Source: Gemmatimonadota bacterium (GTDB lineage: Bacteria; Gemmatimonadota; Gemmatimonadetes; Gemmatimonadales; GWC2-71-9). From it: a stretch of DNA of 46,813 nt. How positions within the stretch are numbered: the first letter of the stretch is position 1; every line of letters starts with the position of its first letter. The notes below the pieces were generated by a model, which saw only the letters and a list, made by a program, of their open reading frames with translations, was not told where the DNA came from and searched no databases. Location of the stretch: assembly GCA_039591655.1 (NCBI GenBank), contig JBDHDE010000017.1, positions 1 through 46,813 on the forward strand, read 5' to 3'. Shown one piece after another: positions 7,576-43,314 of the stretch. The position numbers and the translations under genes were made by a program.

Positions 7576-7590
7576 ATCGGCCGCGCCTCC

Positions 7591-8082: not shown

Positions 8083-8094
8083 CGGCTCCTCGTC

Positions 8095-8364
8095 CTAGCC
8101 AAGTCTCGCCTCCATGCGCCGTACGATTCCTTCGGCGCGGCGCCGCAGCATCGGATGCTGCTCCCACGCGAGATAATCTCTCAGGAGGCGCACCGCCTCC
8201 ACGCTGGGATGCCCGTTGAGATAGCCCAGGGCCGACAGCCGGCGCAAGGGGTGTGCGCTGAACAAGTCCCGGCGGTGCCGGCCCATCGAATGCTGGGCCA
8301 ACGCCGCCCCCACGGCCGCACCCAGTCCCAGCCCAACGAGCAGGGCCCGTCCCCGAGGTCCCAT
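8095..8364 (-). CDS. Small hypothetical protein: N-terminal hydrophobic anchor + HEAT-like helices
   Basis: TGATG coupling to the recR stop. ALLVGLGLGAAVGAALA is followed by RRLSALGYL...LLRDYLAWE. Confidence 0.7.
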   Translation of the reverse strand: MGPRGRALLVGLGLGAAVGAALAQHSMGRHRRDLFSAHPLRRLSALGYLNGHPSVEAVRLLRDYLAWEQHPMLRRRAEGIVRRMEARLG

Positions 8365-8960: not shown

Positions 8961-8965
8961 GGCTC

Positions 8966-9283
8966 TTACAGCGGGAATTGAAACGGTAGCGGCAATCCGC
9001 CGGTGAGTTTCTTCAGCTCGCTGCGGTAGAGCTCATCCGCCTTGCGCTGCGCGTCGCTCACGGCGGCCAGCACGAGGTCCTCCAGCATCTCGATGTCACC
9101 GTCCGCCGCCGCGGCCGGGTCGATGGTGATGCTGCGGACCTGGCCCCGCCCATCGGCGGTGACCTTGACCATGCCACCGCCGGCCGAGCCCGTCACGCTC
9201 TGCTCGGCGAGCTCCGTCTGCATTTGGGTCAGCCGGCCCTGGACCTGCTGACCGAGTTGAAACAACTGCGAGAGATCGGCCAT
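8966..9283 (-). CDS. ybaB: YbaB/EbfC nucleoid-associated protein
   Basis: GSAGGGMVKVTADG, DIEMLEDLVLAAVSDA. Lies between dnaX and recR. Confidence 0.95.
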   Translation of the reverse strand: MADLSQLFQLGQQVQGRLTQMQTELAEQSVTGSAGGGMVKVTADGRGQVRSITIDPAAAADGDIEMLEDLVLAAVSDAQRKADELYRSELKKLTGGLPLPFQFPL

Positions 9284-9330
9284 ATCCCTGTCAATCCAAG
9301 AGTTACGCGTCCAACGGCCCTCGTCGCTGC

Positions 9331-9359
9331 AAGCTACGTGGGGGACGATAGTGCCGCAA
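9331..9359 (-). promoter_or_regulatory. Putative internal sigma70-type promoter for ybaB-recR-mglBA
   Basis: Minus strand TTGCGG-17 nt-TAGCTT in the dnaX/ybaB gap. Confidence 0.5.
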
Positions 9360-9360
9360 G

Positions 9361-26933: not shown

Positions 26934-29453
26934 CTAGCCGCACTCGCTGTAGCCGCATACGTGGCATTTGACGCACCCTTCGGCGAACTCGAGCTGTGAG
27001 CCGCAGTCAGGGCACGCACCGGCGAGCTGCTCCGCTTCGAGGTGCTGGAACTCGAACATGATGCCGCCGTCCCCAGGGACGGGGCCGCGGCCGGCCGGCG
27101 CCGCCGCATCGCGCCCGGCCGCCTGGGCGTCCAGCAGATCCTGCTGTACGCCCTGCTTTTCCTGCATCCACCGCTCGATGGCGATACCGATGGCGTCGGG
27201 CACGGACAGCACCTTGTTGGGGCCCAGCCCCACTGCCCGGTCGGAAGAGATCATCCGGAGCTGCCGGTGGATCTCGGCGAGGGGAATCCCGGACCGCAGG
27301 CCCAGGGAGATGAGCCGGCCGATGGCTTCCACGTCCGCCATCAGCGCGCCGCCGGCCTTCCCGAGGCTCATGAAGATCTCGAAAGGCTGGCCGAGGTCGT
27401 CCTCGGTGAGGGTGACGTAGAGTGTGCCCAGCGGGGTCTCCAGGCGCCGCGTCGTGCCCTTGAGCAGCTCGGGTCGAGACCGCTTGGCGCGGCGCTGCAG
27501 GTTCTCCGACTCGACCTCGTGCAGTTGCTTCTTGGTGCGGAGCAATTCGGCTTCGAGCTCGGCGACGGTTGCCTTGAGCTCCACGACCTGGTTCTTGAGA
27601 GCCGCGGCCTCCTCGGGCACGACGGACTCGGCGGCGTCTCCGGCAGCCTGCTCCTTGACCTTCTTGGCGGTCTTCCCGGTGGACAGCACCTGCATCTCCC
27701 GGCTGCCGTCACGGTACACCGTCACGCCCTTGCAGCCGAGCTCGAACGCGAGCTCGTAGATCTCGCGGACGTCGTCCTCGGTCGCCTGGTGCGGGAAGTT
27801 GCACGTCTTGCTGATGGCGCTGTCCGTGTGCTCCTGGAATGCCGCCTGCATGCGGATGTGCCACTCGGGCGACACGTCGTGGGCGGTCACGAACACCCGG
27901 CGCCACTGCTCAGGCACCTCGGGGAAGTCGATGTGGCCCTCCTCCGCGATGCGGCGAACCAGCTCCTCGGAGTACCAGCCTTCACGCGTGGCGATCTCCA
28001 CGAAGTCGTCGTTCACGTCCGGCATCAGGACGCCCGCCTGATTCCGCATGAAGGCCACGGCGAAGAGGGGCTCGATGCCCGAAGAGCAGCCGGCGATGAT
28101 CGAGATCGTCCCGGTGGGTGCCACCGTGGTCATGTTGCAGTTGCGCAGCCGGCGCATTGGCCGAATGCGCTGCCCCGTCACGTCCCTGGCGCAGTCCCCG
28201 TCCGGCCCCCAAATGCTGTGCTCCCACTCGGGGAAGACGCCCCGTTCCTGCGCCAAGCGTTCGCTCTCGACCTTCGATTCCTCGTCCACGAACCGCATCA
28301 GACGGCGCGCCCACTCGATGGCCTCATCGGAGTTGTAGGGCACACCGAGGCGAGCTACGAAGTCCGCCCAGCCCATCACTCCGAGACCGATTCGGCGGAT
28401 GCGGTTGGCGAGGTCGGTGATCTCCGGCAGCGGATACTTGTTGACGTCGATGACGTTGTCGAGGAAGTGCGTGCACAGGTGTACCGCGCGCCGCAGACCG
28501 TCCCAGTCGACTTCGCCGTTCTTCACGAACACCCCGACATTGATGGAGCCGAGGTTGCACACGTCGTACGGCAGGAGCGGCTGCTCACCACACGGGTTGG
28601 TGGCCTCGTAGCTCCCCAAGTGCGGCACCGGGTTGTAATGGTTCGCCTGGTCGATGAAGAACACTCCCGGCTCGCCCGTCTTCCAGGCACCGTGCACGAT
28701 CTTGGCGAACACCGCGCGGGCATCCAGCGTGCCGACCGCCGCGCCGCTCCGGGGGTGAATCAGCTCGTACTCGCTTCCCGCCTCCACGGCCTTCATGAAG
28801 GCGTCGGTCACGGCCACCGAGATGTTGAAGTTCGTGATCCTGGTGATGTCGTCCTTGCAGGTGATGAACTCGAGAATGTCCGGGTGATCCACCCGCAGGA
28901 TGCCCATGTTGGCGCCGCGACGCGTCCCCCCCTGCTTCACCACGTCGGTCGAAGCGTCGTACAGCGACATGAACGACACCGGCCCGGAGGCTACCCCCAT
29001 CGTGGACCGCACGATGTCGTTCTGGGGCCGCAGCCGCGAGAAGCCGAAGCCGGTACCGCCGCCGGACTGATGGACCAGGGCCATGTTGCGCAGCGTGTCG
29101 TAGATCCCCGCCTTGCCCGTGGAGAGCGCATCCTCCACCGGCAGCACGAAGCACGCCGAGAGTTGCCCCAAGGGCCGACCCGCGTTCATCAGAGTGGGGC
29201 TGTTGGGCATCCACACCCGAGTGGCCATCAGCTCGTAGAACGTCTCCGCCACGGCCTCCACCGCCCCCGGGCTGGCCCCGTAGGTCGCGTCGGCTGCGGC
29301 TATGGTCCGAGCGACCCGCCAGAAGAGGTCCTCGGGCCCCTCCACGGGCTCGCCCTGGTCGTCCTTGACCAAGTAGCGGCGCCTGAGGACCGTGATCGCG
29401 TTCTCACTGAGTTGCGGCGTCACATGCCGCTCCGATTCACCCGCAAAGCCCAT
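26934..29453 (-). CDS. nrdJ: Class II (adenosylcobalamin-dependent) ribonucleotide reductase
   Basis: PNSPTLMNAG, LSACFV, RRGANMG, ATNPCGEQPL...CNLGS, APTGTIS, AISKT, TVYRDGSR. C-terminal TSCPD-like domain and CPDC/CHVC zinc ribbon. No beta-subunit gene nearby. Confidence 0.95.
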   Translation of the reverse strand: MGFAGESERHVTPQLSENAITVLRRRYLVKDDQGEPVEGPEDLFWRVARTIAAADATYGASPGAVEAVAETFYELMATRVWMPNSPTLMNAGRPLGQLSACFVLPVEDALSTGKAGIYDTLRNMALVHQSGGGTGFGFSRLRPQNDIVRSTMGVASGPVSFMSLYDASTDVVKQGGTRRGANMGILRVDHPDILEFITCKDDITRITNFNISVAVTDAFMKAVEAGSEYELIHPRSGAAVGTLDARAVFAKIVHGAWKTGEPGVFFIDQANHYNPVPHLGSYEATNPCGEQPLLPYDVCNLGSINVGVFVKNGEVDWDGLRRAVHLCTHFLDNVIDVNKYPLPEITDLANRIRRIGLGVMGWADFVARLGVPYNSDEAIEWARRLMRFVDEESKVESERLAQERGVFPEWEHSIWGPDGDCARDVTGQRIRPMRRLRNCNMTTVAPTGTISIIAGCSSGIEPLFAVAFMRNQAGVLMPDVNDDFVEIATREGWYSEELVRRIAEEGHIDFPEVPEQWRRVFVTAHDVSPEWHIRMQAAFQEHTDSAISKTCNFPHQATEDDVREIYELAFELGCKGVTVYRDGSREMQVLSTGKTAKKVKEQAAGDAAESVVPEEAAALKNQVVELKATVAELEAELLRTKKQLHEVESENLQRRAKRSRPELLKGTTRRLETPLGTLYVTLTEDDLGQPFEIFMSLGKAGGALMADVEAIGRLISLGLRSGIPLAEIHRQLRMISSDRAVGLGPNKVLSVPDAIGIAIERWMQEKQGVQQDLLDAQAAGRDAAAPAGRGPVPGDGGIMFEFQHLEAEQLAGACPDCGSQLEFAEGCVKCHVCGYSECG

Positions 29454-29761: not shown

Positions 29762-31723
29762 TTACCGGGGCCGCGGCTGGATGGTGAGCCGGAGCCAGGC
29801 GTCCACCGGCCGCCCGTTCTTGGTGGCGGGCTGGTAGGTCATCTGCTCCAGGGCGAAGTGGCCGGCGGCCCTGGTGAACTGCGGGACGTTGGAGTAGCGG
29901 TGCCACTGGATCGTCTCTGCCGTGCCGTCCGCCCGGACCTTAACCCACAGGACCACCGGGTCCGGCCGCTGCTGCACCCCCTCGGGGATCAAGACCCGCG
30001 GCACCAATGTGCCCCGCGGCTCGGTGTCGAAGCAGCTGCCGTCCTGGTTGTACTCGGCACCGGGCTGCGAGCAGTAGTCCACCGGCTCGCGCTGCGCCGG
30101 GGCCTGCGGTTGGGACGGCGGCGCCTGGGCCACCTGGAGGGGCCGGAGCGTGACGGGCACCCGCACCGTGTCGCCCCGGGCCACCGCCACAGTGGTGTCG
30201 AAGTCCTCGGAGCCGGTCTTCCGCACCCTGATTCTCACGCTTCCCGGCGGCACCGGGAACGTGGTGCCCTCCTGCTGGTCGCCGTCCACGAACGCCTGGG
30301 CCAGGGGGGGAACGCCGCGCAGCACCACCAGGCCGGTGGGCGGCAGCTCGCTGACGGGCGTGGCCGCCGTATCCCCGGCGGCTCCCGTGTCCGCCGCCGC
30401 CAGGCCGGCGGAATCCGCGGCGGCGATCCCCAGCGAGTCCTGCGCCGCACCCAAGGAGTCCTCGCCGGCCACGGCGGTGGACTCGGCGGGCAAACCCTGC
30501 TGCGGCTGTAGGAACGGGAGGGGCCACTGGGCCCCCATCCCGAAGTACCAATAGCCGCCGGCCCCGCCGGCACCCAGGGCGAGCATGGTCAGCATCCCGA
30601 CGAGGACGCCGCTGCGCTTCCTCCTCTCGGGCTTGACCTGCGCCGCCGGGATCGGAGTAGTGGGCGTGCTGGGTCGCGCGTCCGCCGGGATGCTCCTGGG
30701 GGTCGTGGGTGGCGGCGCCGGCACCTCCGACGTTGCCACCTCGGAGGCCGCGGTGGATGGCGTGGCCCTGCGCTGCGGCGTTCTGAACCGGCCCTCCATC
30801 GCCGCGATCAGCTCTCCGGCGTCCTGGAACCGCTCGTCGGCGGACTTCGACAGCATGCGCCGGATGACGCCCATCAGCGAGCGTTCCTCGGAGGTGTGCA
30901 GCTCGGGCGTCGGCACCTCCTCCATGATGTGCTTGTACCCGATGGAGAAGGCGTCCTCACCGTCGAACGGCACCTGACCCGTGAGGCACTGGTACGCCAC
31001 GACGCCGAGTGAGTAGATGTCGCTCCGCCCATCCAGGGGCTGCGCCCGCGCCTGCTCCGGGCTCATGTAGTGCGGGGTGCCTATGGACATCCCGGTGCCG
31101 GTGAGTCGCGAGCCGGTCGCCGCCTTGGCAATGCCGAAGTCGGTGAGGACGGAGTGCCCCAGCTCGTCGAACATGATGTTGTCCGGCTTGATGTCCCGGT
31201 GCACGATGCTGTGCTGGTGCGCGTAGCCCAGCGCGCCGCCTGCTTGCACCAGGATCTGCCGGATCTGGGCCGGCGTGAGGGTGCCCCGCTGGGTGAGGAG
31301 CGTCGACAGAGCGCCGCCCCTCAGGAACTTCATCACGAAGTAGATGACACGACCCGTCTTCCCGACGCGATAGATCGGAATGATGTGGGGGTGCTCGAGC
31401 TTCGCCGCTGTACGGGCCTCGCGTTGGAAACGCTCGACGAACTCCGCGTCGAACGCGAGTGAGAAGGGAAGGACCTTGATCGCGACTTCGCGTTCGAGGT
31501 GCCTGTCGCGGGCCCTGAACACGATGGCCATGCCCCCGCGACCCAGCTCCTTCTGGATCTCCCACTCGTCGGCCAGCGCGTCGCGGACGACGTCGAACTC
31601 GCTCTCGTCGGAGCGGTCGGGCTGCACTGCCGCGAGGGGCGTAGTCGTAGCGAGGTCCAGCCCGCAGGAGGGGCAGAACCTAGCCTGATTGTCGACTTCC
31701 GTACCGCAACGCGAACAGTACAT
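29762..31723 (-). CDS. Membrane Ser/Thr kinase: Zn-ribbon - kinase - TM - PEGA-like - TonB C-terminal-like domain
   Basis: CSRC/CPSC, GRGGMA, VAIK, HRDIKPDN, DFG, GTPHYMSPE. TM VLVGMLTMLALG. C-terminus VKVRADG...YQPATKNGRPVDAW. Confidence 0.9.
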   Translation of the reverse strand: MYCSRCGTEVDNQARFCPSCGLDLATTTPLAAVQPDRSDESEFDVVRDALADEWEIQKELGRGGMAIVFRARDRHLEREVAIKVLPFSLAFDAEFVERFQREARTAAKLEHPHIIPIYRVGKTGRVIYFVMKFLRGGALSTLLTQRGTLTPAQIRQILVQAGGALGYAHQHSIVHRDIKPDNIMFDELGHSVLTDFGIAKAATGSRLTGTGMSIGTPHYMSPEQARAQPLDGRSDIYSLGVVAYQCLTGQVPFDGEDAFSIGYKHIMEEVPTPELHTSEERSLMGVIRRMLSKSADERFQDAGELIAAMEGRFRTPQRRATPSTAASEVATSEVPAPPPTTPRSIPADARPSTPTTPIPAAQVKPERRKRSGVLVGMLTMLALGAGGAGGYWYFGMGAQWPLPFLQPQQGLPAESTAVAGEDSLGAAQDSLGIAAADSAGLAAADTGAAGDTAATPVSELPPTGLVVLRGVPPLAQAFVDGDQQEGTTFPVPPGSVRIRVRKTGSEDFDTTVAVARGDTVRVPVTLRPLQVAQAPPSQPQAPAQREPVDYCSQPGAEYNQDGSCFDTEPRGTLVPRVLIPEGVQQRPDPVVLWVKVRADGTAETIQWHRYSNVPQFTRAAGHFALEQMTYQPATKNGRPVDAWLRLTIQPRPR

Positions 31724-31769
31724 CCATCTCTCCCAGAATTCTCAACCTACGGCCCGCGGCAAAACACTG

Positions 31770-34016
31770 TCAACCGCCGACCTGCACTACCTCCAACGGT
31801 GCTTCCCGCTCGATCTCGACCTCGCCGGCCGGGTCCTCCACCACGATACGCAGCGTGTATTGCCCCGGCTTCAGGTCGCTTATGTCCACTGTCTGGAACA
31901 CCGGCGTGTACCGGCTCTCGGCCACGCCTTCGAACGTCAACGCGATGGGCGGTCCGCCGCCGCCGAACAGACGCCCTATCCAGCTGAAGATCGAGCCGCC
32001 CCCCTCCTTGCGAACCTCGAGTCGCGTCCGGTAGGTCGCGCCCCGCTCGAGACCGTGCACCTCGTAGTAGACCTGCAGGTTCGCCGCCACCGGGTAACCC
32101 GGCAGCGGGTTGAGACTGACCTGGAGCTCACCCGTGGCCCACGTGAGGCCGGATCCAGCCCGGCCCACGACCAGGTCGCTCATCACCAGCGAATCCGCCC
32201 CGAAGTCCGGCACTACGACGCTGTCACCGGTATGCACCTCGCCCGCCCCGCGCCACGGCTGCCCGATGGCGACCCGCAACGCATAGTCCCCCTCGGGAAC
32301 CGGCGCGGTCAGGAAGCCCGCCAGGTACTGGCCTTCGACCAACGGCTCGGCCACGCTGAACACGCGCAGCGTATCGACGTACGTCACCGCGGCTTCGCCG
32401 GGCTGCGCCACCACCAGGCGCATTTGCACCGGGTAGGCGACGCGATCACCCAAGGGCTGCGAGGCGACCGAGGTCGCCGGGACGGCGAACACCACCAGCA
32501 CCCGCCCGTCCCCGGTCGCCGAGTCACCCAGCACGAAGTACTGGACCCTCGCGTCCATGGGGACATCGAACCGCAGCCGATAGCTGTCGGTGGTGGTCCC
32601 GATCCCGATGGAGCGATCACCCATCTGTCGTTCCTCGGCAAGCACGCGGCCCTGTCCCGCAGCGCTGGTGGTCGTCAGACGTTGGTAGACCGGATCCATC
32701 GTCATACGGGATTCGAACAGGCCGTGGAACCGGGGATCGTTCCGCCCCGCCGCCTGTAGCTCGATGGAGGCCTCCAACCCGAACACGTCGGTGAGGCTCT
32801 CTACCAGCTTGTAGTCCTGCACGTCGGCGTGCGCCACGAAGTGGAACAGCAGATTTCCGTCCGACCGGAGGTACATCCACGACTCGTTCGGATCCACGTT
32901 CGGCGCGTTGTAAACCGCCCGCTCGTCGGGCTCGCCATGCCGCATGTACACGACCCCGCGGTCGTCGAACACCTGCTGCTCGGTCCGATAGGGGTTGACG
33001 ACGTCGTAGCGCCGGTGCCGGCTCACCAGCCGGAAGTCCCGCAGCGAGCGGAAGTACCGCCGGTAGTGCTCTGTCAGCCGCTCCCCCGGGGCGCGGGCGT
33101 CGGCCGCCTCGCGGCGCTCCCAAAACTGATGGAGCCACGCGGACCGGTCCTCCGCCGGCACGAGGTCGAACTGCGCCAGCTCCTCGGGCGTCGCGACCCA
33201 GGAGATGTCCTGGCGATGCAGGGCCACGGCGTCCGGTGTATGGGCGAGCGGCGCCCCCTCGTAGTACGTGTATTCCGCCTCCTCCGGCTCGTTCACGAAG
33301 TACAGCGTCCGAGCCACCTCCAGAAACCCGATCCCCGAATCCCCGCCCAGCTCCAGGTAATCGCCGAATGCGACCAGGGCTGAGTCGCCCTCTCCCATCG
33401 CGCGCTCGACCCTGCCGCGAGCCAGCTGGAGGGCGGGTACGTCGGCCGCCTCCGTCCGCGCAGCTTCCCGCACCGCTTCCAGCGCCAGCTCCATTCGAGG
33501 CCTGATCCGCTGCCGCATCGCGGTCTCTGCCAGGTCCACGACCGCGTCGGCGAATGCGGGATCGGCCCGAGCCGCCCGCCCGAACGCCTGGGCCGCTTTG
33601 GAGAGATAGTCCAATCCCAGCACCTGCCGGATGTTCTCCAGCGCGATGAAGGAGTGCTCCCCCATCGACAACTCGGCGAGGCCCAGCCCATACCAGGCAT
33701 ACGGCCACTCCGGCTCCAGTTCGGCAGCCCACTCGAACTCGGAGCCCGCGTCGTCGTAGTGCTGCTTCTCTCCGGTGATCTCGCCGAGTCGATAGGCCAG
33801 AAAGCCGAGCTTGACGTGCAGCAGCGCGCTGTCCCGTTCGATCCGCGCCACATCGATCATCGCAGACTCCAGTTGCCGCAGCTCGAGGCTGTCCTCGACA
33901 GCCGCGATCGAGTCACGGAACCACTCGATCGAGTCCCGCTGCGCCGGAGTCTGGGCGGCGGCGGTCACCGCTCCAATTAGCCCAGAAAAAGCCATCAAAA
34001 CCGTGCGGAAGCTCAC
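31770..34016 (-). CDS. GWxTD domain-containing exported protein with TPR-like N-terminus
   Basis: Signal peptide ending AAA-Q, TPR-like helices, FWERR...EHYRR, DDRGVVYMRHGEPD, NESWMY and a C-terminal beta-sandwich. Start estimated at GTG 34016. Confidence 0.8.
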   Translation of the reverse strand: MSFRTVLMAFSGLIGAVTAAAQTPAQRDSIEWFRDSIAAVEDSLELRQLESAMIDVARIERDSALLHVKLGFLAYRLGEITGEKQHYDDAGSEFEWAAELEPEWPYAWYGLGLAELSMGEHSFIALENIRQVLGLDYLSKAAQAFGRAARADPAFADAVVDLAETAMRQRIRPRMELALEAVREAARTEAADVPALQLARGRVERAMGEGDSALVAFGDYLELGGDSGIGFLEVARTLYFVNEPEEAEYTYYEGAPLAHTPDAVALHRQDISWVATPEELAQFDLVPAEDRSAWLHQFWERREAADARAPGERLTEHYRRYFRSLRDFRLVSRHRRYDVVNPYRTEQQVFDDRGVVYMRHGEPDERAVYNAPNVDPNESWMYLRSDGNLLFHFVAHADVQDYKLVESLTDVFGLEASIELQAAGRNDPRFHGLFESRMTMDPVYQRLTTTSAAGQGRVLAEERQMGDRSIGIGTTTDSYRLRFDVPMDARVQYFVLGDSATGDGRVLVVFAVPATSVASQPLGDRVAYPVQMRLVVAQPGEAAVTYVDTLRVFSVAEPLVEGQYLAGFLTAPVPEGDYALRVAIGQPWRGAGEVHTGDSVVVPDFGADSLVMSDLVVGRAGSGLTWATGELQVSLNPLPGYPVAANLQVYYEVHGLERGATYRTRLEVRKEGGGSIFSWIGRLFGGGGPPIALTFEGVAESRYTPVFQTVDISDLKPGQYTLRIVVEDPAGEVEIEREAPLEVVQVGG

Positions 34017-34175
34017 ACCGATATATACCCGAAGATTGGCCACCCGTTCAGCTCTCTGAGACCGTATGCGACGGCAGAATCGCGCTGACGCGACTGTGTC
34101 TGTGGAACCCACAGCGAACGCGGCCCGTTCCAGATTCCGCGCTCCCCGCAACGCCCCGCGGGGGGCATCGCCGGC

Positions 34176-36143
34176 TCAGCGACCCTCGGTCGACCGGGAG
34201 GAGAGGAACGCACGGAGCCCCTCCACGATGCCCCTGGCGTAGCGCTGCTGACCCTCCCGGCTCGCGAGGACCGCCTCTTGGTCGGGGAGCATCAGGAACA
34301 GCCCCTCGGTGAGGGCCGCCGGCATCCAGGTGGGCCTCACCAGGGCCAGGTCGCCGCGTCCCACACCCAGGTCGCGGAAACCGAGCTGGGCCACGAGGGC
34401 CCGGTCCAGCGCCCGGGCGAGAGGCACGCTGCGGGGGTGGAAGAAGTAGACGCTGGTGCCGTTGTTCACGAACGGGTTGACCCCGTCGGGCAGCGCGTTG
34501 GCGTGCACCGACACGAGGACGTCGGCATCCGCCAACTCGGGGCCCCGGGTTCGCGCCGCGAGGCCCAGGGAAGATTCCGTGGCCCGCGTGAGGTACACGC
34601 GGGCACCGCGGGCCTCCAGCATCGCCTTGGCCGCGAGGGCGACCGCCAGATTGACCTGGGACTCCGGCGTCCCTGTCGGCCCCACGGCCCCTCCCGGCGG
34701 ATGCCCCGGATCGAGGGCGATGAGCCGGCCCCGCAACGGATGCCGGCGATCGATCGATGGCGGCCGGCGGATCTCGAGCACCAGGTCGCGTCCCGACCAC
34801 CGCGTGCGGTACCCCCACACCTGCTCGCGCAGCGCAACCCGCACGACGGTCACGTCCTCGGCGGGCTGCTCAAAGGTGACCAGCTCTACAAACCGGTCTG
34901 TTCCGGAGTACTGGATCCAGTCAACGTCGGCCGCCACACCGTAGAGGGTCACGCTCAGCTCCCGCGCCGTCTCGTCCACCCGATACGGAATGCGGCCCGG
35001 GAGCGGCATGCGGAGCACCACCGAGCGCTCTCCCGGAACGATCCTGAGTGACTCAAGCGTACCGTGGGACGCAGGGTAGCCGACGGGGATGGGCTGCACG
35101 TCAGCGGCGTCCACCCACGCCACCGTGCTCCGGGCGAGCTGCAGTCGCAGTTGGCGGTTCCACCGGCCGCTCACCGCGGCGACGGTGCCGGTAGGAAAGA
35201 ACCAGTGATACGTGCCATAGGGTGAGGGGCGCCCCGCCACGATGCTGTCGGTCGCGCCCGTCCCGGCCGAATCGTCATTCACCACCACGAGCCTGGGGAC
35301 CGCCGGATCGAGCACCCCGAGCCTCAGGGGCCAGCGGGCCCGGGCCGTGTCGGCCCCCAGTGCCACCTGGAGCCAACCCCAGGCGGTGTCGGCGGCGGCC
35401 GGGGCGCTGTCCGGGGCCAGGACGTTTCCCGGGTCCGGCCCCAGCGGTCCCGCGAGCCAGCCCACATAGCGGGTGCGGTTCACCGGCCGCTCCCCAGGGT
35501 ACACCGTGCCGAAGGCACGCTCGCCCCAGGGGAGCTCCTCGGGGACCGGGTCGGGGATGAGCCGCACGGCGACGCTGTCACTCACCCACAGCCGCACGTC
35601 GGCGCCCGGTGCCGCCTGCACCGCCAGCGGCACGCCCTCACCGGCGCGCACCCAGCGATCCCCCGCCGGCCGGAACGAGGTGGTGTCGATCCACACCGAA
35701 TCCCGAGCCGGCTGGAACCCGCGGCGAATGGGAGCGAGGAACGTCATGCGGGCCGTATCGGCCCCGGCCGATGCCACCAACTCGAAGCGGGCGAGCGAGT
35801 CATCGGGCAGGGGGACCCACGCGATCCAGCCACCGGTGGGATAGACCGCCACCGGCCGGCCGTTCACAGTGAGGCGGGCATCGCCCCGCCCCGTGGAGCC
35901 GAGTATGAAGGCCGAGTCACGAGCGCCGACGGCATAGGTGGAGTCCGCCGGCACCACGAGCCACGTGTCGGGCCCCGCCCGCAGCGGGACCTGTGGGCGG
36001 GGATAGGCAACGCGCAGCGCGAGGGGCCCGGTCACGACGGGGGGTGGGGGTAGCGGGTCGTGGGGCCCCAGGGCGCCCCCGGCACATGCAGCGCCGAGGG
36101 AACCGACGACCCAGACCACGGCGGCGCGGAGGGTGCGCTGCAT
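34176..36143 (-). CDS. N-acetylmuramoyl-L-alanine amidase (Amidase_3), lipoprotein
   Basis: Lipobox GAA-C. Zn/catalytic motifs LDPGH, ESQVN, SVHANA, LTEGLF. Confidence 0.92.
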   Translation of the reverse strand: MQRTLRAAVVWVVGSLGAACAGGALGPHDPLPPPPVVTGPLALRVAYPRPQVPLRAGPDTWLVVPADSTYAVGARDSAFILGSTGRGDARLTVNGRPVAVYPTGGWIAWVPLPDDSLARFELVASAGADTARMTFLAPIRRGFQPARDSVWIDTTSFRPAGDRWVRAGEGVPLAVQAAPGADVRLWVSDSVAVRLIPDPVPEELPWGERAFGTVYPGERPVNRTRYVGWLAGPLGPDPGNVLAPDSAPAAADTAWGWLQVALGADTARARWPLRLGVLDPAVPRLVVVNDDSAGTGATDSIVAGRPSPYGTYHWFFPTGTVAAVSGRWNRQLRLQLARSTVAWVDAADVQPIPVGYPASHGTLESLRIVPGERSVVLRMPLPGRIPYRVDETARELSVTLYGVAADVDWIQYSGTDRFVELVTFEQPAEDVTVVRVALREQVWGYRTRWSGRDLVLEIRRPPSIDRRHPLRGRLIALDPGHPPGGAVGPTGTPESQVNLAVALAAKAMLEARGARVYLTRATESSLGLAARTRGPELADADVLVSVHANALPDGVNPFVNNGTSVYFFHPRSVPLARALDRALVAQLGFRDLGVGRGDLALVRPTWMPAALTEGLFLMLPDQEAVLASREGQQRYARGIVEGLRAFLSSRSTEGR

Positions 36144-36151
36144 GGTGGCGG

Positions 36152-36181
36152 AACCTAAACTGTACCAACGAGCTACGTCAA
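36152..36181 (-). promoter_or_regulatory. Sigma70-type promoter for the amidase (near-leaderless)
   Basis: Minus strand TTGACG-18 nt-TAGGTT, 8 nt before the ATG. No SD sequence. Confidence 0.6.
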
Positions 36182-36191
36182 TTTCGCTTGG

Positions 36192-36220
36192 TTGACCCCT
36201 ATTTTGGCGGCGTGTAGATT
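36192..36220 (+). promoter_or_regulatory. Sigma70-type promoter for the FHA-kinase-phosphatase-protease operon
   Basis: TTGACC-17 nt-TAGATT. Confidence 0.65.
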
Positions 36221-36269
36221 GGCTGACCGCCGCGCTAAGCGAGCGCCTCGCCGGATGGGAGCACTAACC

Positions 36270-37190
36270 GTGACGGGACCCGCCGATAAGCCCCCACTGG
36301 GCGCCACTGCCCCGCGCCGCTCCGCCGAGACCGTGTGCCCTGCATGCGGCGGCGCCGTGGTGCAAGGCCTCCCCTACTGTCCGTACTGCGGTGCGCGCGT
36401 TCGGACCGCCCCCGTCGGTTCCGCCTGTCCCCGCTGTGGAGCGGCGACCGCCGATTACATGAAGTTCTGCCCGGCGTGTGGGCAGGAGACGGCGGCGCGA
36501 CCGTCGCACCCGGCTGCGCCTCCTGCCGTCCCCGAGGGACCGCCGTCGCAGTTCGCCCTGGCGCTGGTCGACGAGTCGGGAACGGAGGTGGCCAGGTACA
36601 ATCTCTCCCAGGGCGACACGACGATCGGGCGGGAGGGTGCCCTCCTGGTGTTCCCGGATGACGTCTTCATGTCGCCGCTGCACGTGCGGCTCACCATCCG
36701 GGGCGACGAGCTCGTGGCCCGGGACCTGGGCAGCCGCAACGGGACCTGGCTATTCATCGCCGAGCCGCACCTCCTGGTCGACGGCGACCGGCTCCTGATC
36801 GGCTCGCAGGTCCTCGAGTACCGCCGGCTCGGCTACCCCGGGCCGCACCCCCCGGAGAGCGACGCCACCAGGCGCATGGGAAGCCTGGTGCCGAGCGCCG
36901 ACATCGCCTGCCTCACCCAACTCAGGAGCGACGGCTCCACGCGCGACACCATCCACCTCTCGCCCGGCAGGAACCTGCGGCTGGGGCGGGACCAGGGCGA
37001 CTACACCTTCCCCTACGACCCCTCGATGAGCGGAGCCCACGCCGAGATCCGCTCGGAGGATGCGGACTTCGTGGCGGTCGATCTCGAGAGCCGCAACGGC
37101 GTCGGGGTCGCCGCACGGGGTGAGGCGGTCCTCGCCGCGGGCTCGCGGTTCCTGGTTGGCGACAAGATGCTGCGCGTGGAGAGCCGGTGA
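36270..37190 (+). CDS. Double zinc-ribbon + tandem FHA domain protein
   Basis: CPAC/CPYC/CPRC/CPAC. FHA1 IGR...MSPLH...DLGSRNGT and FHA2 LGR...MSGAH...DLESRNG. GGGAG RBS before GTG 36270. Confidence 0.88.
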   Translation: MTGPADKPPLGATAPRRSAETVCPACGGAVVQGLPYCPYCGARVRTAPVGSACPRCGAATADYMKFCPACGQETAARPSHPAAPPAVPEGPPSQFALALVDESGTEVARYNLSQGDTTIGREGALLVFPDDVFMSPLHVRLTIRGDELVARDLGSRNGTWLFIAEPHLLVDGDRLLIGSQVLEYRRLGYPGPHPPESDATRRMGSLVPSADIACLTQLRSDGSTRDTIHLSPGRNLRLGRDQGDYTFPYDPSMSGAHAEIRSEDADFVAVDLESRNGVGVAARGEAVLAAGSRFLVGDKMLRVESR

Positions 37191-38830
37191 AGAGCTGCCC
37201 GGTCTGCGGGTCGGAGTGGCCCGACGACACCCGGTTCTGCCCCAAGGACGGCTCCACGCTGCGCGGCACCGAAGGCACCGACCTCGTGGGGAGCGTCATC
37301 GCCGACCGCTATCACATCGAGGAGAAACTCGGCGAGGGTGGCATGGGCACCGTATACCTCGGCGAGCACGTGAAGATGGGCCGCAAGAGCGCCATCAAGG
37401 TGATGGCCAAGTCCACGACCGGCGACGCGGAGGCCGTGGCGCGATTCAATCGGGAGGCCGCGAACGCAGCGCGTATCGGTCACCCCAACGTGTGCGCCAT
37501 TTACGACTTCGGGGAGACCGACGACGGCACCATCTACCTCGCCATGGAGTTCATCTCCGGCGAGTCGCTCAACGATCTGCTGAAGCGGGAAGGGGTGCTG
37601 CCTCCGGCCCGGATCGCGCCCATTCTCGAGCAGGTCGGCGCCGCCCTGGAGGCCGCACACGATCTGGGGATCGTCCATCGCGACCTCAAGCCGGACAACA
37701 TCATGCTCGCTGCCGGGCGGGACGGCACCGACGTCGTGAAGGTCGTGGACTTCGGCATCGCCAAGGCGATGAGGGGCGAGGAGGGCCAGAAGGTCACCCG
37801 CACGGGGCTCGTGGTGGGGACCCCGGAGTACATGAGCCCGGAGCAGCTCTCGGGCGACGTGCTCGACGGGCGCAGTGACATCTACTCCCTGGGACTGCTG
37901 TTCTACCGCATGCTCACCGGCGTACTCCCGTTCCAGGCCGACAGCGCCCAGGAGATGATGATCAAGCGGCTCACCGACGCCCCGCAGTCGCTGGCAGCGG
38001 CGGCTCCAGGCGCTGTGTTCCCCGCGCGGGTGCAGCAGGTGGTAGATCATGCGCTCCAGCGGATGCCGGCCGACCGCTACACCAGCGCCACCGAGATGGT
38101 GCGGGACGCGGTGGACGCGCTGTGCGGGATGTCGGCGACGGCGGCCGCTGTCGATACGGAGATCGCCACGGAGGTCATGGACTCCGCCGGCCTGGCCCGG
38201 ACGCGGGTCTCCGGAAGCGGCGCGCCGACGACCCCGAGAACACCGGCGCCGATCCAGAATCCTACAGTGCGCCGCAGGCGGCGACCCGTAGTGGCCCTCG
38301 CCGCTGCCGCCATCGTCGTGGCGGGCGGCGGCATCGCCGTCGTAGTGTCGGGCGGCGGCGAGCAGGCACCGGTCGGAGCGGACGACGCGGGCAGCGTCCC
38401 GCCTGCCACGCCGGACAGCGGCGAGCCTACGGCGGGACGGGCGGGCGGAGCACCGGCTGAGACCCGCGCGGATCCGGCGCCGCAGCGGCCCACCCGGCAG
38501 CAGCAGCAGGAGGCGGCAGGAGAAACCGACCGGCCACATGTGACCGGCATCGTTGACAGCGCTGCGGTGGACGGCGAATTACTTGATATGATCGAACTGA
38601 TCGACGATCGTGCGACACGCGCCGGCGCGATGCATCGGGCCGAGGAGATCTACGACACGCCGAACATGCCGCCCGTGCTGCGGGCGTCCGCTGCGAGCAT
38701 GCTCGGCTTCGGCCACCAGCTGGACGGAGGCACCTCGGAGGCTTGCCGTTGGCTGGGCGAAGCGATGCGGCTGGCGCCCGACAACACCGGATACCGCAAC
38801 CTGCACCAAAGGACGGGCTGCGCCTCGTGA
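37187..38830 (+). CDS. Membrane Ser/Thr protein kinase with N-terminal Zn-ribbon and C-terminal TPR-like helices
   Basis: CPVC...CPKD, GEGGMG, AIK, HRDLKPDN, DFG, GTPEYMSPE, DIYSLG. TM VVALAAAAIVVAGGGIAVVV. GTGA overlap. Confidence 0.93.
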   Translation: MKSCPVCGSEWPDDTRFCPKDGSTLRGTEGTDLVGSVIADRYHIEEKLGEGGMGTVYLGEHVKMGRKSAIKVMAKSTTGDAEAVARFNREAANAARIGHPNVCAIYDFGETDDGTIYLAMEFISGESLNDLLKREGVLPPARIAPILEQVGAALEAAHDLGIVHRDLKPDNIMLAAGRDGTDVVKVVDFGIAKAMRGEEGQKVTRTGLVVGTPEYMSPEQLSGDVLDGRSDIYSLGLLFYRMLTGVLPFQADSAQEMMIKRLTDAPQSLAAAAPGAVFPARVQQVVDHALQRMPADRYTSATEMVRDAVDALCGMSATAAAVDTEIATEVMDSAGLARTRVSGSGAPTTPRTPAPIQNPTVRRRRRPVVALAAAAIVVAGGGIAVVVSGGGEQAPVGADDAGSVPPATPDSGEPTAGRAGGAPAETRADPAPQRPTRQQQQEAAGETDRPHVTGIVDSAAVDGELLDMIELIDDRATRAGAMHRAEEIYDTPNMPPVLRASAASMLGFGHQLDGGTSEACRWLGEAMRLAPDNTGYRNLHQRTGCAS

Positions 38831-39861
38831 GATTCTTCGGCTCGAAGGGCTCCGGAATCCGCGTGACCCTGTTCGGCAAGACCGACGTGGGACGCACGCG
38901 GGAGCACAACGAGGACACGTTCCTCGTCGCCGACCTCTCGACGAAGGACGCCTCACTGCTTCCCAACGTCCGAGATCACGAGATCGGGCCCAAGGGCTCG
39001 CTGCTGGTGGTGGCGGACGGCATGGGCGGCGCCGCTGCGGGTGAGGTGGCAAGCAGGATGGCCACGGAGACCATCTTCGAGCACATGGTGCGGTCGTGGG
39101 CACACGACACGGAGAACACGCCGCAGCAGTTCGCCTATCGCCTCAAGGAGGCGGTCGAGGAGGCCAACACACGGATTCACAGCCACGCCAAGACGCACCC
39201 GGAGATGCGGGGCATGGGCACCACCACTACCGCAGTCGGCGTGCTGGGCGATCAACTCTATATCACCCAGGTGGGCGACTCACGGGCCTATCTGATCCGG
39301 TCAGGCGATGGCATCCAGCTCACCAAGGACCAGTCATTGATGCAGCGGCTGGTGGACGCAGGGGAGATCACCGAGGAGGAGGCCGAGAAGAGCGAGCGCC
39401 GCAACATCATCCTCCAGGCCCTCGGCCCGGACCCCAAGGTGCGGGTCGACCTCACCAACCAACAGGTCCGGCGTGGCGATCTCCTGGTGCTGTGCTCTGA
39501 CGGCCTCTCCGGCCAGGTGACGCGGGAGGAGATCGCCGAGATGGTCTCGAATCCGGGCAAGGACCTGCCAGACATGTGCGCCGAGCTCATCGACCTGGCC
39601 AACGAGCGCGGCGGTCCGGACAACATCACGGTGGTGGTCGCCCGGCTCACCGGTGAGGGGCTGCTCGAGGCCGAGGGTGAAGACTCCGTGGGCCACCAGG
39701 TCTACCCGCTCCTCGATCCGGAGTCCACCACGGAGCCGGTTCCGGTCTACAAGGGCTCCCAACCCCCCGTACCCGAGAACAAGGCCCGTATGATCGCCGC
39801 GGGCGTGGCGGCCGCGGCGATCGCCGCCCTCGCCCTCTTCGTCGCCGCGAGCGGCTTTTAG
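38827..39861 (+). CDS. PP2C-type Ser/Thr phosphatase (Stp1/IreP family), C-terminal membrane anchor
   Basis: TDVGRTREHNED, VADGMGG, QVGDSRAY, CSDGL, GGPDNIT. Hydrophobic tail. GTGA overlap with the kinase. Confidence 0.93.
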   Translation: MRFFGSKGSGIRVTLFGKTDVGRTREHNEDTFLVADLSTKDASLLPNVRDHEIGPKGSLLVVADGMGGAAAGEVASRMATETIFEHMVRSWAHDTENTPQQFAYRLKEAVEEANTRIHSHAKTHPEMRGMGTTTTAVGVLGDQLYITQVGDSRAYLIRSGDGIQLTKDQSLMQRLVDAGEITEEEAEKSERRNIILQALGPDPKVRVDLTNQQVRRGDLLVLCSDGLSGQVTREEIAEMVSNPGKDLPDMCAELIDLANERGGPDNITVVVARLTGEGLLEAEGEDSVGHQVYPLLDPESTTEPVPVYKGSQPPVPENKARMIAAGVAAAAIAALALFVAASGF

Positions 39862-39869
39862 ATCCCGCC

Positions 39870-41264
39870 GTGAAGGCCCAGGTCAAAGTCCTCACGGGCG
39901 CCCGGGCCGGGTATACCGAGGTATTCTCGAAGCCGTACATCGGCTTCGGCCGTCACCCCGCCTGCGACCTGCGCTTCGATCCGGAGCGTGACCTGGACGT
40001 CTCGGCGCGACACGCCGCAATCGTCGGCCAGGACGACCGCTGGCTCGTGCGGGACCTTGGGAGCCGCAACGGCACCCTGGTGAATGGGCACCGCATCACC
40101 CGCGACACCAAGCTCGACGACACGGACCAGATCCGGCTCGGCGAAGAGGGCCCCATTCTGGAGTTCCGGCTCGTGGCCGACGGCACGCCCGACGGGGTGA
40201 TGGCCGCCGGAACGCGGGCGGCGCACTCGCCGGCCGCCGCCGCCGTGGACCAGGGTCAGGGCCGGGTCAGCACCACGGAGCGCATCCGCGTCGAGGTGGG
40301 CCGCCAGACCCGCAAGCTCCGCGGGGTGGTGTTCGGCCTGCTGGCCTCGATCGTCGTGGTCGCTGCCGTCTTCATGTTCGCGAGCCACCAGCAGGAGCGG
40401 CGACGGGCGGCGGAGATGGCGGGGATCCAGGCGCGCACGGACAGCCTCCTCGGCGCCGCCGACGACGCGATGCATGCGTTGCAGGGAAAGGTCGAGGGGC
40501 TGGCCGGAGCGCTGCGCCACTCGCAGACCGAGGTCGGACGGCTCCGCGAGCTCCTCGCTTCCGCCCAGCAAGGGGGCAGCGACGAAGAGGTCGAGGCCCT
40601 CAAGCAGCAACTGGCGGACGCGTCGCAGGCACTGCAGTACCAGCAGACGGCGGCGTTCGTCGACTACGGCGGCATAGTGGAGCGCAACCAAAGGGCCGTG
40701 GCCATGATCTGGGTGGAGTTCGCGCCGGGAGAGGTCGTCACGGCCACGGCCTTCGCGGTGCGCTCCGACGGCGTGCTGCTCACCAACCGGCACGTCGTGA
40801 CCGGCCAGGACGGCTCCCGCCGGCCAGACCGCATTGCGGTGCGCTTCGCGGACTCCAGGCAGAACTGGCGGGCGCAGATCGTGGGCCTCTCTCCCGAGGC
40901 CGACATCGCGGCCATCAAGGTGGACATCACTGGCGGCGTGCCGACGGTGCAGCTCAACGCCCGCTCTGATACCGTCCGCCAGGGCGACCCCATCGCCCTC
41001 ATTGGCTTTCCGCTGGGGACCGAGCTGCCCATGTCGGGGGAGTTCGCCCGGACCAGCTTCTGGGCCGGGTCGGTGAGCAAGATCCTGGACGACCTGCTCC
41101 AGGTGGACGCCTACGGCGCCGAGGGTGCCAGTGGCAGCCCGATCTTCGACCGCAACGGCGAGGTGGTGGGAGTCCTCTACGGCGGGCAGGAAGGCTCGGG
41201 CGGCAGGATCGTTTTCGGCGTGCCGTCGCGCTACGCGGTTGGGTTGCTGGAGACGATCGACTAG
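39870..41264 (+). CDS. FHA - TM - coiled coil - trypsin-like serine protease
   Basis: FHA (FGR, VSARHA, DLGSRNGT). TM VVFGLLASIVVVAAVFMF. Heptad region. Triad motifs TNRHVV, DIAAI, GASGSP. No PDZ domain. Confidence 0.9.
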   Translation: MKAQVKVLTGARAGYTEVFSKPYIGFGRHPACDLRFDPERDLDVSARHAAIVGQDDRWLVRDLGSRNGTLVNGHRITRDTKLDDTDQIRLGEEGPILEFRLVADGTPDGVMAAGTRAAHSPAAAAVDQGQGRVSTTERIRVEVGRQTRKLRGVVFGLLASIVVVAAVFMFASHQQERRRAAEMAGIQARTDSLLGAADDAMHALQGKVEGLAGALRHSQTEVGRLRELLASAQQGGSDEEVEALKQQLADASQALQYQQTAAFVDYGGIVERNQRAVAMIWVEFAPGEVVTATAFAVRSDGVLLTNRHVVTGQDGSRRPDRIAVRFADSRQNWRAQIVGLSPEADIAAIKVDITGGVPTVQLNARSDTVRQGDPIALIGFPLGTELPMSGEFARTSFWAGSVSKILDDLLQVDAYGAEGASGSPIFDRNGEVVGVLYGGQEGSGGRIVFGVPSRYAVGLLETID

Positions 41265-41269
41265 CGCAG

Positions 41270-42391
41270 TCAGCCCAAGGTCACCGTCCCCAGCACCCGG
41301 GGGGCCCGGGCCCCGGTGGCGCTCGGCACGTTCCCCTCCAACCCCTCCAGGCTGCGCCACCCGAGGTAGGCGAACACCGCAGCCTCTTTGGCGTCGCCGT
41401 CGAAGAATTCGTCGTCGAACCGCCGCACCGTCCAGCCGTCGAGCAGCTCGGCGAGACGGGTCATCAGCGTCGGGTTGCGCGCCCCACCGCCGGAGACGAG
41501 CACGTCCCGCTCCCCTGCCGCGGGGAGCCACCGTGTGAGACCGAGGGCCACCGAGCGTACGGTGAGCTCCAGCGCCGTGGCGATGGCGTCCTCGCCGGTG
41601 GCGCTCCCGCGGCGCTCCCGCACCCGGCGCAACAGTGCCGCCGCATACGCGTCGCCGAACGCCTCCCGCCCCGTGCTCTTGGGCGGCGGAGCCGCGAAGT
41701 AGGGGTGCGCCAGAAGCTCAGCGAGCACACCCTCGTCGGCCGTTCCCCGGGCCGCGCGGCGCCCACCCTCATCGAACGCGGCATGGGGATCGAGCAGCCG
41801 CACCCCCGCGTCGATCACCGCCATACCGGGGCCGGTGTCGAACGCCACGACGCCGTCGGTGACGCCCCGGCGCGGCACCCATGTGACGTTGGCCATACCT
41901 CCCAGGTTCAGCAGCGCCCGACCGCGCTCCCCATGGCCGAAGAGCACGGCGTCGGCCAGGGGAACCAGGGGAGCCCCCTGCCCTCCGGCCGCCACGTCGC
42001 GACTGCGAAAATCGCTCACCACGCGGACGCCGAGGCGCTCCGCGATGGTGGCGGGACAGCCCAGCTGCAACGTCGCGCGACCCGGCTCGTGCCACACCGT
42101 CTGTCCGTGGGAGGCCGCCAGGGCGATGTCCCGGACTGAGCTCCCCGCCGCCTCGAGCGCATCGAGCGCGGCATCGGCGATCCAGTCCCCCAGATCTCTG
42201 TGGAGCAGAGCGAGGTGGCGCGCCGTGCCCTGCGAGACGGCCTCGAGAATCGCGCTGCGCTGCTCGGCCGTGTACGGTCGCGTGTGGAACGCCACGAGGC
42301 GCAGCGACCCGGGGTCCTGGATCTCGACGAGCGCCGCGTCGACGCCGTCGAGCGACGTACCCGACATCAGCCCCAGGACCAGCGCACTCAT
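41270..42391 (-). CDS. anmK: Anhydro-N-acetylmuramic acid kinase
   Basis: GLMSGTSLDGVD, SHGQTVWH, DFRSRDVAAGGQGAPLVP, FDTGPG, PPKSTGRE, KEA. Confidence 0.96.
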   Translation of the reverse strand: MSALVLGLMSGTSLDGVDAALVEIQDPGSLRLVAFHTRPYTAEQRSAILEAVSQGTARHLALLHRDLGDWIADAALDALEAAGSSVRDIALAASHGQTVWHEPGRATLQLGCPATIAERLGVRVVSDFRSRDVAAGGQGAPLVPLADAVLFGHGERGRALLNLGGMANVTWVPRRGVTDGVVAFDTGPGMAVIDAGVRLLDPHAAFDEGGRRAARGTADEGVLAELLAHPYFAAPPPKSTGREAFGDAYAAALLRRVRERRGSATGEDAIATALELTVRSVALGLTRWLPAAGERDVLVSGGGARNPTLMTRLAELLDGWTVRRFDDEFFDGDAKEAAVFAYLGWRSLEGLEGNVPSATGARAPRVLGTVTLG

Positions 42392-43314
42392 GTGATCACC
42401 GGGGGTGGGTCCCCCGCGGCGCGGCGCACCCATCCCTCGGCCTCGGCCAGGAGCTCTCGGGCCCGGTCGGCTCCGACTTCGCGGCGCACCATTACGATGG
42501 CAAGCTTCACATCGCCGCCCGCCCCCTCGATGGCCCCCCGGGCCTCTTCCCGGCCCACCGCACACGCTTCCATCACGATCCGCTCGCCGCGGTCGCGCAG
42601 CTTCTCGCTCAGCGCCATGAGGTCCACCATCAGGTTGCCGTACGCCCTACCGCTCCTGATCATGGCGCCGGTCGTGATCGTGTTGAGGGCCAGCTTGGTC
42701 GCCGTGCCCGCCTTGAGCCGCGTCGAGCCGGTGAGCACCTCGGGGCCCGCGCGCAGCACGATGGCGACGTCGCACGTCGTCGCCAGCTCCTGCGGCGGAT
42801 CCGAGCAGGTGAGGAACACGGTGCGCGCCTCGAGCTCCCGGCCCCGGCGGAGTGCGGCCTGGACGAACGGAGTCGTACCGCTGGCGGCGATCCCCATCAC
42901 CACGTCCCGCGCCGACACGCCGTGCTGGTCCATCGCCCGGGCACCGGCGGGGCCGTCGTCCTCGGCACCCTCCTGACTGCGGTCCAGGGCCGGGCGCCCG
43001 CCGGCGATGACGCCAACGACCATCTCGGGCGGCGTGCCGAACGTGGGCGGGCACTCGGTGGCGTCCAACACGCCTAGCCGACCGCTGGTTCCCGCGCCGA
43101 CGTACACCAGGCGGCCGCCCGCCCGGAAGGCGTCCACCACCAGCTCGATGACGTGGGCGATCTCCTCCCGCGCCCGGTGCACCACCTCCGGCACCGTGCG
43201 ATCCTCGGCGTTCAACAGATCGACGATCTCCAGAACGGAGGCCACGTCGATGCGCTCGGTGCGGGGATTGCGCCGCTCGGTCAGGCGCGGATCCAGGAAG
43301 TCGGGCGTCGGCAT
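42388..43314 (-). CDS. murQ: N-acetylmuramic acid 6-phosphate etherase
   Basis: TERRNP, GAGTSGRLGVLDATECPPTFG, GPEVLTGSTRLKAGTA, GNLMVD. ATGA overlap with anmK. Confidence 0.97.
   Translation of the reverse strand: MPTPDFLDPRLTERRNPRTERIDVASVLEIVDLLNAEDRTVPEVVHRAREEIAHVIELVVDAFRAGGRLVYVGAGTSGRLGVLDATECPPTFGTPPEMVVGVIAGGRPALDRSQEGAEDDGPAGARAMDQHGVSARDVVMGIAASGTTPFVQAALRRGRELEARTVFLTCSDPPQELATTCDVAIVLRAGPEVLTGSTRLKAGTATKLALNTITTGAMIRSGRAYGNLMVDLMALSEKLRDRGERIVMEACAVGREEARGAIEGAGGDVKLAIVMVRREVGADRARELLAEAEGWVRRAAGDPPPVIT

Follow-up and report, generated by a model that had tools for sequence, protein, structure and literature searches.

The phosphorylation operon and the wall recycling genes that share one locus in a Gemmatimonadota bacterium are probably neighbours and not one circuit, since related genomes lose the two parts separately. 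The locus lies at 29762..43314 of the stretch studied here (46,813 nt; assembly GCA_039591655.1, contig JBDHDE010000017.1; referred to below as the window), and all nine of its genes were recovered with their named domains in a Pfam/NCBIfam search. An earlier note on this DNA had described the locus as a phospho-threonine signalling hub wired to wall cleavage and recycling. The hub itself was borne out, as a real, order-wide module of kinase, PP2C phosphatase and FHA proteins with a proteolytic output; the wiring was not. The reading that we favour, and hold to be reasonably probable from sequence comparison, has two layers, a phospho-threonine switch that is self-contained and acts on a protease predicted to be periplasmic, and an older recycling operon, the two being neighbours by history.

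Four genes on the (+) strand would encode the switch. ZnFHA2 (36270..37190) is a double zinc ribbon with a tandem FHA adaptor, and its GTG at 36270 is the start used throughout the genus. It is followed by kin2 (37187..38830), with a zinc ribbon, a Hanks kinase domain, a Thr-bearing juxtamembrane linker, one transmembrane (TM) helix and a small C-terminal domain, of which a TPR-like character is a lead only. PP2C (38827..39861) is a PP2C/Stp1-type phosphatase with a C-terminal membrane anchor, and FHA-protease (39870..41264) joins an FHA domain, a TM helix and a helical stalk to an HtrA-like trypsin domain without PDZ. The ZnFHA2/kin2 and kin2/PP2C reading frames overlap by 4 nt each and the FHA-protease start lies 8 nt past the PP2C stop, so that the rightward unit reads as one operon.

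The catalytic and binding residues of the locus are in place, in both of its kinases, PP2C, the amidase zinc ligands, the FHA domains and the His-Asp-Ser triad. Both kin2 and the second kinase, kinTonB, carry an intact G-loop, VAIK/SAIK, HRD(I/L)KPDN, DFG and GTPxYMSPE. PP2C scored 248 bits against NF033484 (cut-off 230) with invariant metal-binding motifs, and the GR, SxxH and N phospho-Thr-binding residues are conserved in the ZnFHA2 pair and in the FHA domain of the protease. The triad of the protease is intact (H308/D345/S421) and its closest solved relatives are HtrA1, mycobacterial HtrA, DegP and DegS; no C-terminal PDZ was found, the protein ending straight after the protease domain, and all HtrA family models stayed below cut-off. 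A single strong hydrophobic helix occurs in each of kin2, PP2C and FHA-protease. Their C-terminal parts, the protease domain included, are predicted to be periplasmic because there is no signal peptide, the N-terminal domains are cytoplasmic and more K/R residues precede the helix (3.2 versus 2.3 for the protease). Two stretches are candidate phosphosites. One is the near-invariant linker between the FHA domains of ZnFHA2, with Thr200 in DATRRMGS (36861-36884); an AlphaFold model of the FHA pair (pLDDT 89, matching the FHA fold) showed this linker as flexible between two well-folded domains. The other is the PP2C tail motif TTEPVPVY, residues 301-308 (39727-39750).

The distribution of the genes was examined in 140 genomes of the phylum that are at least 90% complete, 98 of them in the order Gemmatimonadales and 42 outside, where absence means not found with the query used. 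PP2C had an orthologue in 96/98 genomes of the order and in none of the 42 outside (E 1e-55). ZnFHA2 was found in 52/98 and the FHA-protease family in 60/98 (58 once two paralogue-only matches are taken away), again with 0/42 outside for each. Corresponding values inside and outside the order were 82/98 and 8/42 for the amidase, 96/98 and 19/42 for anmK, and 47/98 and 1/42 for the GWxTD protein described below. Loci were then compared for about 100 Gemmatimonadales genomes, hand-picked as the best protease matches followed by genomes with losses; a marker tree took in 94 genomes, without G040, G048 and G055, for which marker sequence was too scarce, and without G139, which was pruned; rows truncated by contig ends were excluded trait by trait.

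Within the rightward operon the genes varied together. The presence of kin2 and that of FHA-protease were concordant in 86/92 genomes (55 with both, 31 with neither, 1 with kin2 only and 5 with the protease only), and for kin2 and ZnFHA2 the counts were 48 both, 6 kin2 only, 3 ZnFHA2 only and 35 neither. The PP2C tail motif, defined as T[EDQ]PVP[VI] in families f1 and f3 of the order or R[AT]T-x-P-hydrophobic in f2, was present in 50 of the 56 genomes with kin2 and in 0/38 without; all 50 carriers have kin2 and FHA-protease, three of them without ZnFHA2. A generic T-x-P-hydrophobic tail pattern gave 53/56 versus 4/38. The protease triad (H, D/E, S) was intact in 55/57 kin2-bearing genomes, five having Glu for Asp and two being frameshifted (the protease of G040 is cut upstream and was excluded), while four of the five kinase-less proteases had lost the catalytic His and Ser in a gene otherwise whole (L067, L127, L128 and L069). 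The FHA residues R28/S45/H48/N67 of the protease were unchanged in all kinase-bearing orthologues except one. Thr200 of the ZnFHA2 linker was kept in 47/47 genomes with kin2; among three without it, one had lost the Thr, one had a remodelled linker and one had kept the Thr. A TQ/TE motif in the kin2 juxtamembrane region occurred in 35/47 genomes with ZnFHA2 and 0/6 without, a weak pattern, with similar variants in both groups.

The tail motif, triad decay and Thr200 patterns fit a putative scheme in which kin2 writes the marks, ZnFHA2 and the protease FHA read them and PP2C is recruited to erase them. On such a scheme, the membrane kinase kin2 would autophosphorylate Thr sites of its own juxtamembrane linker and would also phosphorylate the ZnFHA2 linker and the PP2C tail. 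The cytoplasmic FHA of the protease would dock on these phospho-sites and gather protease molecules in the membrane, which would in turn activate the PDZ-less HtrA-like domain across the membrane, and the switch would be reset by PP2C, brought in through its phosphorylated tail. That the operon is an inside-out device, in which cytoplasmic Thr phosphorylation turns on a periplasmic protease through an FHA domain that stands in for the PDZ sensor and the main phosphatase of the order joins the complex through its phosphorylated tail, is put forward tentatively, as possible rather than probable. It is quite improbable, in our estimate, that the substrates of the protease are envelope or wall proteins. 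PP2C also has a wider job besides its operon role, given that 96/98 genomes keep it though its partners are often missing, with roughly 90 kinases and five PP2Cs to a genome; the 3.3-Mb source genome encodes 89 kinases, five FHA proteins and five PP2Cs.

Wall genes lie on either side of this operon. On the left, the amidase gene (34176..36143, (-) strand) encodes an exported Amidase_3 N-acetylmuramoyl-L-alanine amidase, left over from the older recycling operon. On the right, also on the (-) strand, are anmK (41270..42391), for anhydro-N-acetylmuramic acid kinase, and murQ (42388..43314), for N-acetylmuramic acid (MurNAc) 6-phosphate etherase, both above their family cut-offs (NF007148, 421 bits versus 387, and TIGR00274, 350 versus 302). 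A synteny check gave conserved and not random neighbours, the amidase on one side and anmK-murQ on the other, and not the unrelated neighbours that the earlier note had named as a sign against its proposal. Counting genomes with both genes on one contig (G051 by an amidase piece on the PP2C contig), PP2C and the amidase were within 20 kb and divergent in 73/73, with 8 more on different contigs, and PP2C and anmK were within 20 kb in 81/84, with 11 more split and orientation kept in 84/84. The control gene nrdJ (26934..29453, (-) strand), for a B12-dependent ribonucleotide reductase and a member of the same conserved backbone, was within 20 kb of PP2C in 72/73, with 20 more split; on the other side of the block most loci have ggt. 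Synteny thus does not support wiring to the wall genes, because nrdJ is linked to PP2C as tightly as the amidase is.

Retention and loss did not couple the signalling genes to the wall genes either, unlike in a single co-evolving system of the kind that the earlier note had proposed. Among 93 genomes, 42 had both amidase and kin2, 37 the amidase only, 13 kin2 only and 1 neither. Where independent pairs contrasted in the amidase, kin2 or FHA-protease differed in 0/10 and kinTonB in 0/9, and the amidase changed state about 12 times on the tree with no change in kin2, the protease, the tail motif or kinTonB. The GWxTD gene and the PP2C tail motif do not track the amidase; kinTonB and GWxTD genes track neither the amidase nor the rightward unit.

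Genomes outside the order point to the history of this arrangement. In 20 outgroup regions from 17 genomes no kinase, PP2C or FHA gene was found, and several of these regions have, on one strand, murQ-anmK-nagZ (GH3)-SSS permease or AmpG-like MFS-amidase-(PD40 protein)-(hexapeptide protein)-nrdJ, mostly tightly packed and often with overlapping codons. Outside the order nrdJ and anmK were within 12 kb in 13/15 genomes, the remaining two being split by contig ends, with no signalling genes there. In Gemmatimonadales the permease and amidase genes are separated by the signalling genes, which are read in the opposite direction; the operon occurs in single copy at this one fixed site, with housekeeping genes (nrdJ, ggt) around it, and tracks the species tree. 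The four-gene operon was probably inserted once into the older recycling operon, in the Gemmatimonadales ancestor. The locus of the source genome has since lost nagZ, the permease and the genes for the PD40 and hexapeptide proteins; distant homologues of nagZ and the permease (35-41%) lie on other contigs. The 5 nt between the FHA-protease stop (41264) and the anmK stop (41270), which the earlier note had pointed out, are real but are a derived state that arose by loss of nagZ and the permease, since nagZ, with or without the permease, stands between the two genes in 24/45 relatives; the junction was rejected as a designed feature. A related side observation is an exported PD40-repeat protein of about 950 aa (L070:3178-6030 and 32 other loci, cluster c10; weak Pfam match only), whose gene immediately follows that of the amidase throughout the class, persists where the amidase has been lost, and is missing in the window.

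The leftward unit has grown by two later additions. The gene next to the amidase (31770..33995, (-) strand; alternative start 34043) encodes a TPR and GWxTD protein, an identity from the earlier note that held (TIGR04514, 34.8 bits versus a cut-off of 28). Its model (pLDDT 89) has, besides the signal peptide, a TPR superhelix, a GWxTD alpha/beta domain and two Ig-like sandwiches, a fold that makes a non-enzymatic periplasmic scaffold likely; no catalytic motif was seen, and fold searches gave TPR and Ig-like matches only, the GWxTD domain being barely tested as it was not folded alone. The last gene, kinTonB (29762..31723, (-) strand), encodes a zinc ribbon, a Hanks kinase domain, a TM helix that is Gly-rich and weak in the source genome and clear in orthologues, and a periplasmic part with a TonB_C-like end (22.5 bits, below the cut-off of 24.6), through which it may contact outer-membrane proteins. 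Within the order, both genes are confined to families f1 and f3. A juxtamembrane PTTP motif of kinTonB was considered as a tie to the rightward FHA proteins and rejected, as it is kept in 5/8 genomes without a local FHA gene versus 29/38 with one. The amidase had been called a lipoprotein; Amidase_3 is present, but the lipobox (LGAA-C20) is non-canonical and its Cys is missing in some relatives. Related N-terminal Cys ribbons are likewise present as claimed, but are not special to the locus, occurring in 10/89 kinases of the genome, and were rejected as a locus-specific wiring code.

The divergent units share a gap of 126 nt (36144..36269), as first described, from the amidase ATG (36143) to the GTG at 36270. 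It holds two back-to-back sigma70-type promoter matches, TTGACC-17-TAGATT rightward (36192-36220) and TTGACG-18-TAGGTT leftward (36181-36152), the -10 of the latter ending 8 nt before the amidase ATG, so the amidase transcript is probably leaderless. Across 88 gaps the rightward match was found in 62, the leftward in 25 and both in 21, with shuffles giving about 0.5-0.7. An apparent palindrome proved to be the two back-to-back -35 boxes, and an alignment of 17 gaps, inspected by eye, showed no operator-like motif besides the promoter boxes. The gap thus appears to hold two conserved promoters, for which interference is possible, with no shared regulator indicated. An Rfam scan of 26000-46813 gave no match.

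Several points weigh against the two-layer reading. The tail motif pattern was set after the sequences had been viewed, and on supported branches it gave 6 independent pairs, 4.1 in the same direction and 0 opposite, with a median p of 0.125, which is not significant in a test of low power. The four dead proteases represent two lineages only, and the kinase-less genome G026 keeps an intact triad. Co-loss of adjacent genes may stem from one deletion, yet PP2C, between kin2 and the protease, stays. The choice of loci was partly enriched for losses, and the outgroup orders may form one clade, with one loss in a sister clade instead of one gain. Finally, PP2C never leaves the amidase/anmK site, and a functional link would give the same picture. 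The intact protease of G026 is also what would be expected if PP2C alone mattered, as a housekeeping phosphatase for a large kinome, with ZnFHA2, kin2 and the protease as accessories and the protease as a constitutive quality-control enzyme without phosphorylation control. The near-universal retention of PP2C, the persistence of the rightward promoter match where ZnFHA2 and kin2 are deleted, and the 88 other kinases that could provide phosphosites agree with this; we nevertheless think it rather unlikely, because the tail motif is absent from every kinase-less genome, their proteases mostly lose the triad, and the protease FHA residues hardly change where the kinase is present.

It is in our judgement unlikely that the signalling genes form a circuit which senses the state of the envelope or of muropeptides and controls how the wall is cleaved and recycled, for example by the protease acting on the amidase or by phosphorylation of AnmK/MurQ, with help from the shared promoter region. 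The cassette does sit inside a recycling operon and keeps its place across the order, the -35 boxes of the two promoters are 10 nt apart so that polymerases could interfere, and genomes without both amidase and kin2 are rare (1/93). There is also a precedent in mycobacteria, whose PstP is under phospho-regulation and has wall regulators among its targets, according to the available part of 10.1101/2022.02.28.482390. Against these stand the equal linkage of nrdJ, the indifference of the signalling traits to amidase changes and the lack of an operator-like motif; after deletion of the amidase in G001, moreover, the leftward leader is kept, now in front of the next gene along, the PD40 gene, and no wall-binding domain, PASTA or other, was found in either kinase or in FHA-protease. 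We regard as very improbable a role of the operon in conflict or phage defence, on the pattern of the prophage kinase-kinase-phosphatase system or of ternary systems that contain trypsin, in which the protease would be the effector. PADLOC PD-T4-6 models do match both kinases, RT-Protease_XI weakly matches the protease, and kinase/PP2C/FHA sets occur in defence (PMC11341870, as far as its accessible text goes); the PADLOC matches, however, cover generic kinase and trypsin domains only, the single-copy operon follows the species tree in one fixed place, no vWA, MoxR or GTPase partner was found, and the portion of PMC7159879 at hand does not describe this layout.

Further observations were made around the signalling genes. 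The ZnFHA2 of L046:9159-10247 and of many f1/f3 relatives often differs from that of the window's genus by an additional zinc ribbon at its N-terminus, the third, and by a PxTRV-type linker. In family f3 (L049, L050, L052, L053, L055, L056, L062, L068, L070) PP2C has, in place of its membrane anchor, a short KKKWWPF/KKKWWKF end that probably attaches it to the membrane peripherally, and eight f3 loci have two extra genes after FHA-protease, one encoding a DUF5723 outer-membrane protein. In L038 and L090 (G005) a rearrangement splits kin2, leaving the halves of the block about 35 kb apart. Contig C18 of the source genome (L158:9029-12914) holds a second trypsin fusion gene, FHA-FHA-trypsin, with a double-kinase-domain gene next to it and a GH38 glycosidase nearby. 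The arrangement is seen at L164:9353-14544 too, and in three other genomes (L162, L163 and L165) the gene has unrelated neighbours. On contig C14 (L159:5994-8295) of the source genome a triple-FHA gene stands directly ahead of a second PP2C. On contig C16 (L161:7388-13371) three tandem TPR/GWxTD-like genes lie close to dnaA, yidC and mnmE, and at the studied locus itself some relatives (L122, L125) have GWxTD genes that were duplicated up to four times. Elsewhere in the window, at 6901-11031, are dnaX, ybaB, recR, a short gene and then mglB/mglA-like genes, named from translations only, a layout that we take to resemble one from myxobacteria.

Gemmatimonadales are common in soil and sediment and have a very large kinome, as the source genome illustrates. 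No described Ser/Thr pathway for the order was found in the literature, although supplements could list these architectures; no paper on this operon was found, the parts of PMC2887360 and PMC11032199 that were available hold nothing on it, literature on anmK/murQ/nagZ gave no mention of Gemmatimona-, and that on GWxTD nothing relevant. The order-wide PP2C and its operon thus offer a first handle on Ser/Thr signalling in this order, with named candidate phosphosites. New here are the ancestral recycling operon, the nrdJ control, the PP2C tail motif and the decay of kinase-less proteases. Control of the wall would have been the weightier finding, but comparison of genomes does not bear it out, and the case shows that tight synteny in Gemmatimonadota can be backbone history.

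In the MurNAc recycling route of the E. coli type, the steps are NagZ - amidase - AnmK - MurQ. Similarly, genomes across the class have murQ, anmK and nagZ in a cluster with an amidase and a permease (AmpG-like MFS, or SSS), but the amidase here is an exported Amidase_3 and not AmpD, and nagZ and the permease are gone from this locus. FHA-protease resembles DegS/HtrA (S1C) in its His-Asp-Ser trypsin fold, single N-terminal TM helix and predicted periplasmic catalytic domain. DegS is controlled by periplasmic peptides; here, in contrast, PDZ is absent and a cytoplasmic FHA domain would give control from inside the cell, so that phosphorylation gating the protease across the inner membrane would be the reverse of the DegS route. 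The pathway of type VI secretion systems (T6SS) with PpkA/PppA/Fha differs in that the source genome has no T6SS core genes: as the earlier note had held for T6SS genes at the locus, no sheath gene was found in this 95% complete genome (VipB 0 matches, ClpV1 below and TIGR03354 far below cut-off).

The actinobacterial cluster has the layout fhaA-fhaB-pstP-rodA-pbpA-pknA-pknB. As there, a membrane Hanks kinase, a membrane-anchored PP2C and FHA proteins share one operon near wall genes. In contrast to it, the present locus has no PASTA, rodA or pbpA, as noted before: PASTA is missing from both kinases in the Pfam search (NF033483 gave 327 and 330 bits, cut-off 450, on the kinase part only), and rodA/pbpA from the gene lists of the window and its relatives; PASTA matches of the source genome are located on other contigs. 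Moreover, the recycling genes are on the other strand and lost independently, a protease output is fused, and the candidate phosphosite is in a C-terminal tail. The phosphatase itself is probably a kinase target in both, regulation of PstP in mycobacteria being treated in the available part of 10.1101/2022.02.28.482390. Double-zinc-ribbon tandem-FHA proteins of Myxococcota, uncharacterised as far as found, share the architecture of ZnFHA2 and a Thr..GS linker. The FHA-trypsin fusion has a counterpart in Bacteroides thetaiotaomicron NP_811686.1 (FHA-FHA-trypsin), and the source genome itself has a second gene, FHA-FHA-trypsin, beside a kinase; the accessible text of the domain survey (PMC2605481) records this protein as an architecture only, with no function, operon or topology given. 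A further relative in logic is the vWA-kinase-FHA-PP2C operon DRA0331-0334 of Deinococcus radiodurans, in which, as far as the portion at hand of 10.64898/2026.01.23.701218 describes it, writer, reader and eraser likewise share one operon with FHA docking as the switch, whereas the Gemmatimonadales operon has no vWA, fuses FHA to a protease and not to a phosphatase, and adds a tandem FHA with zinc ribbons.

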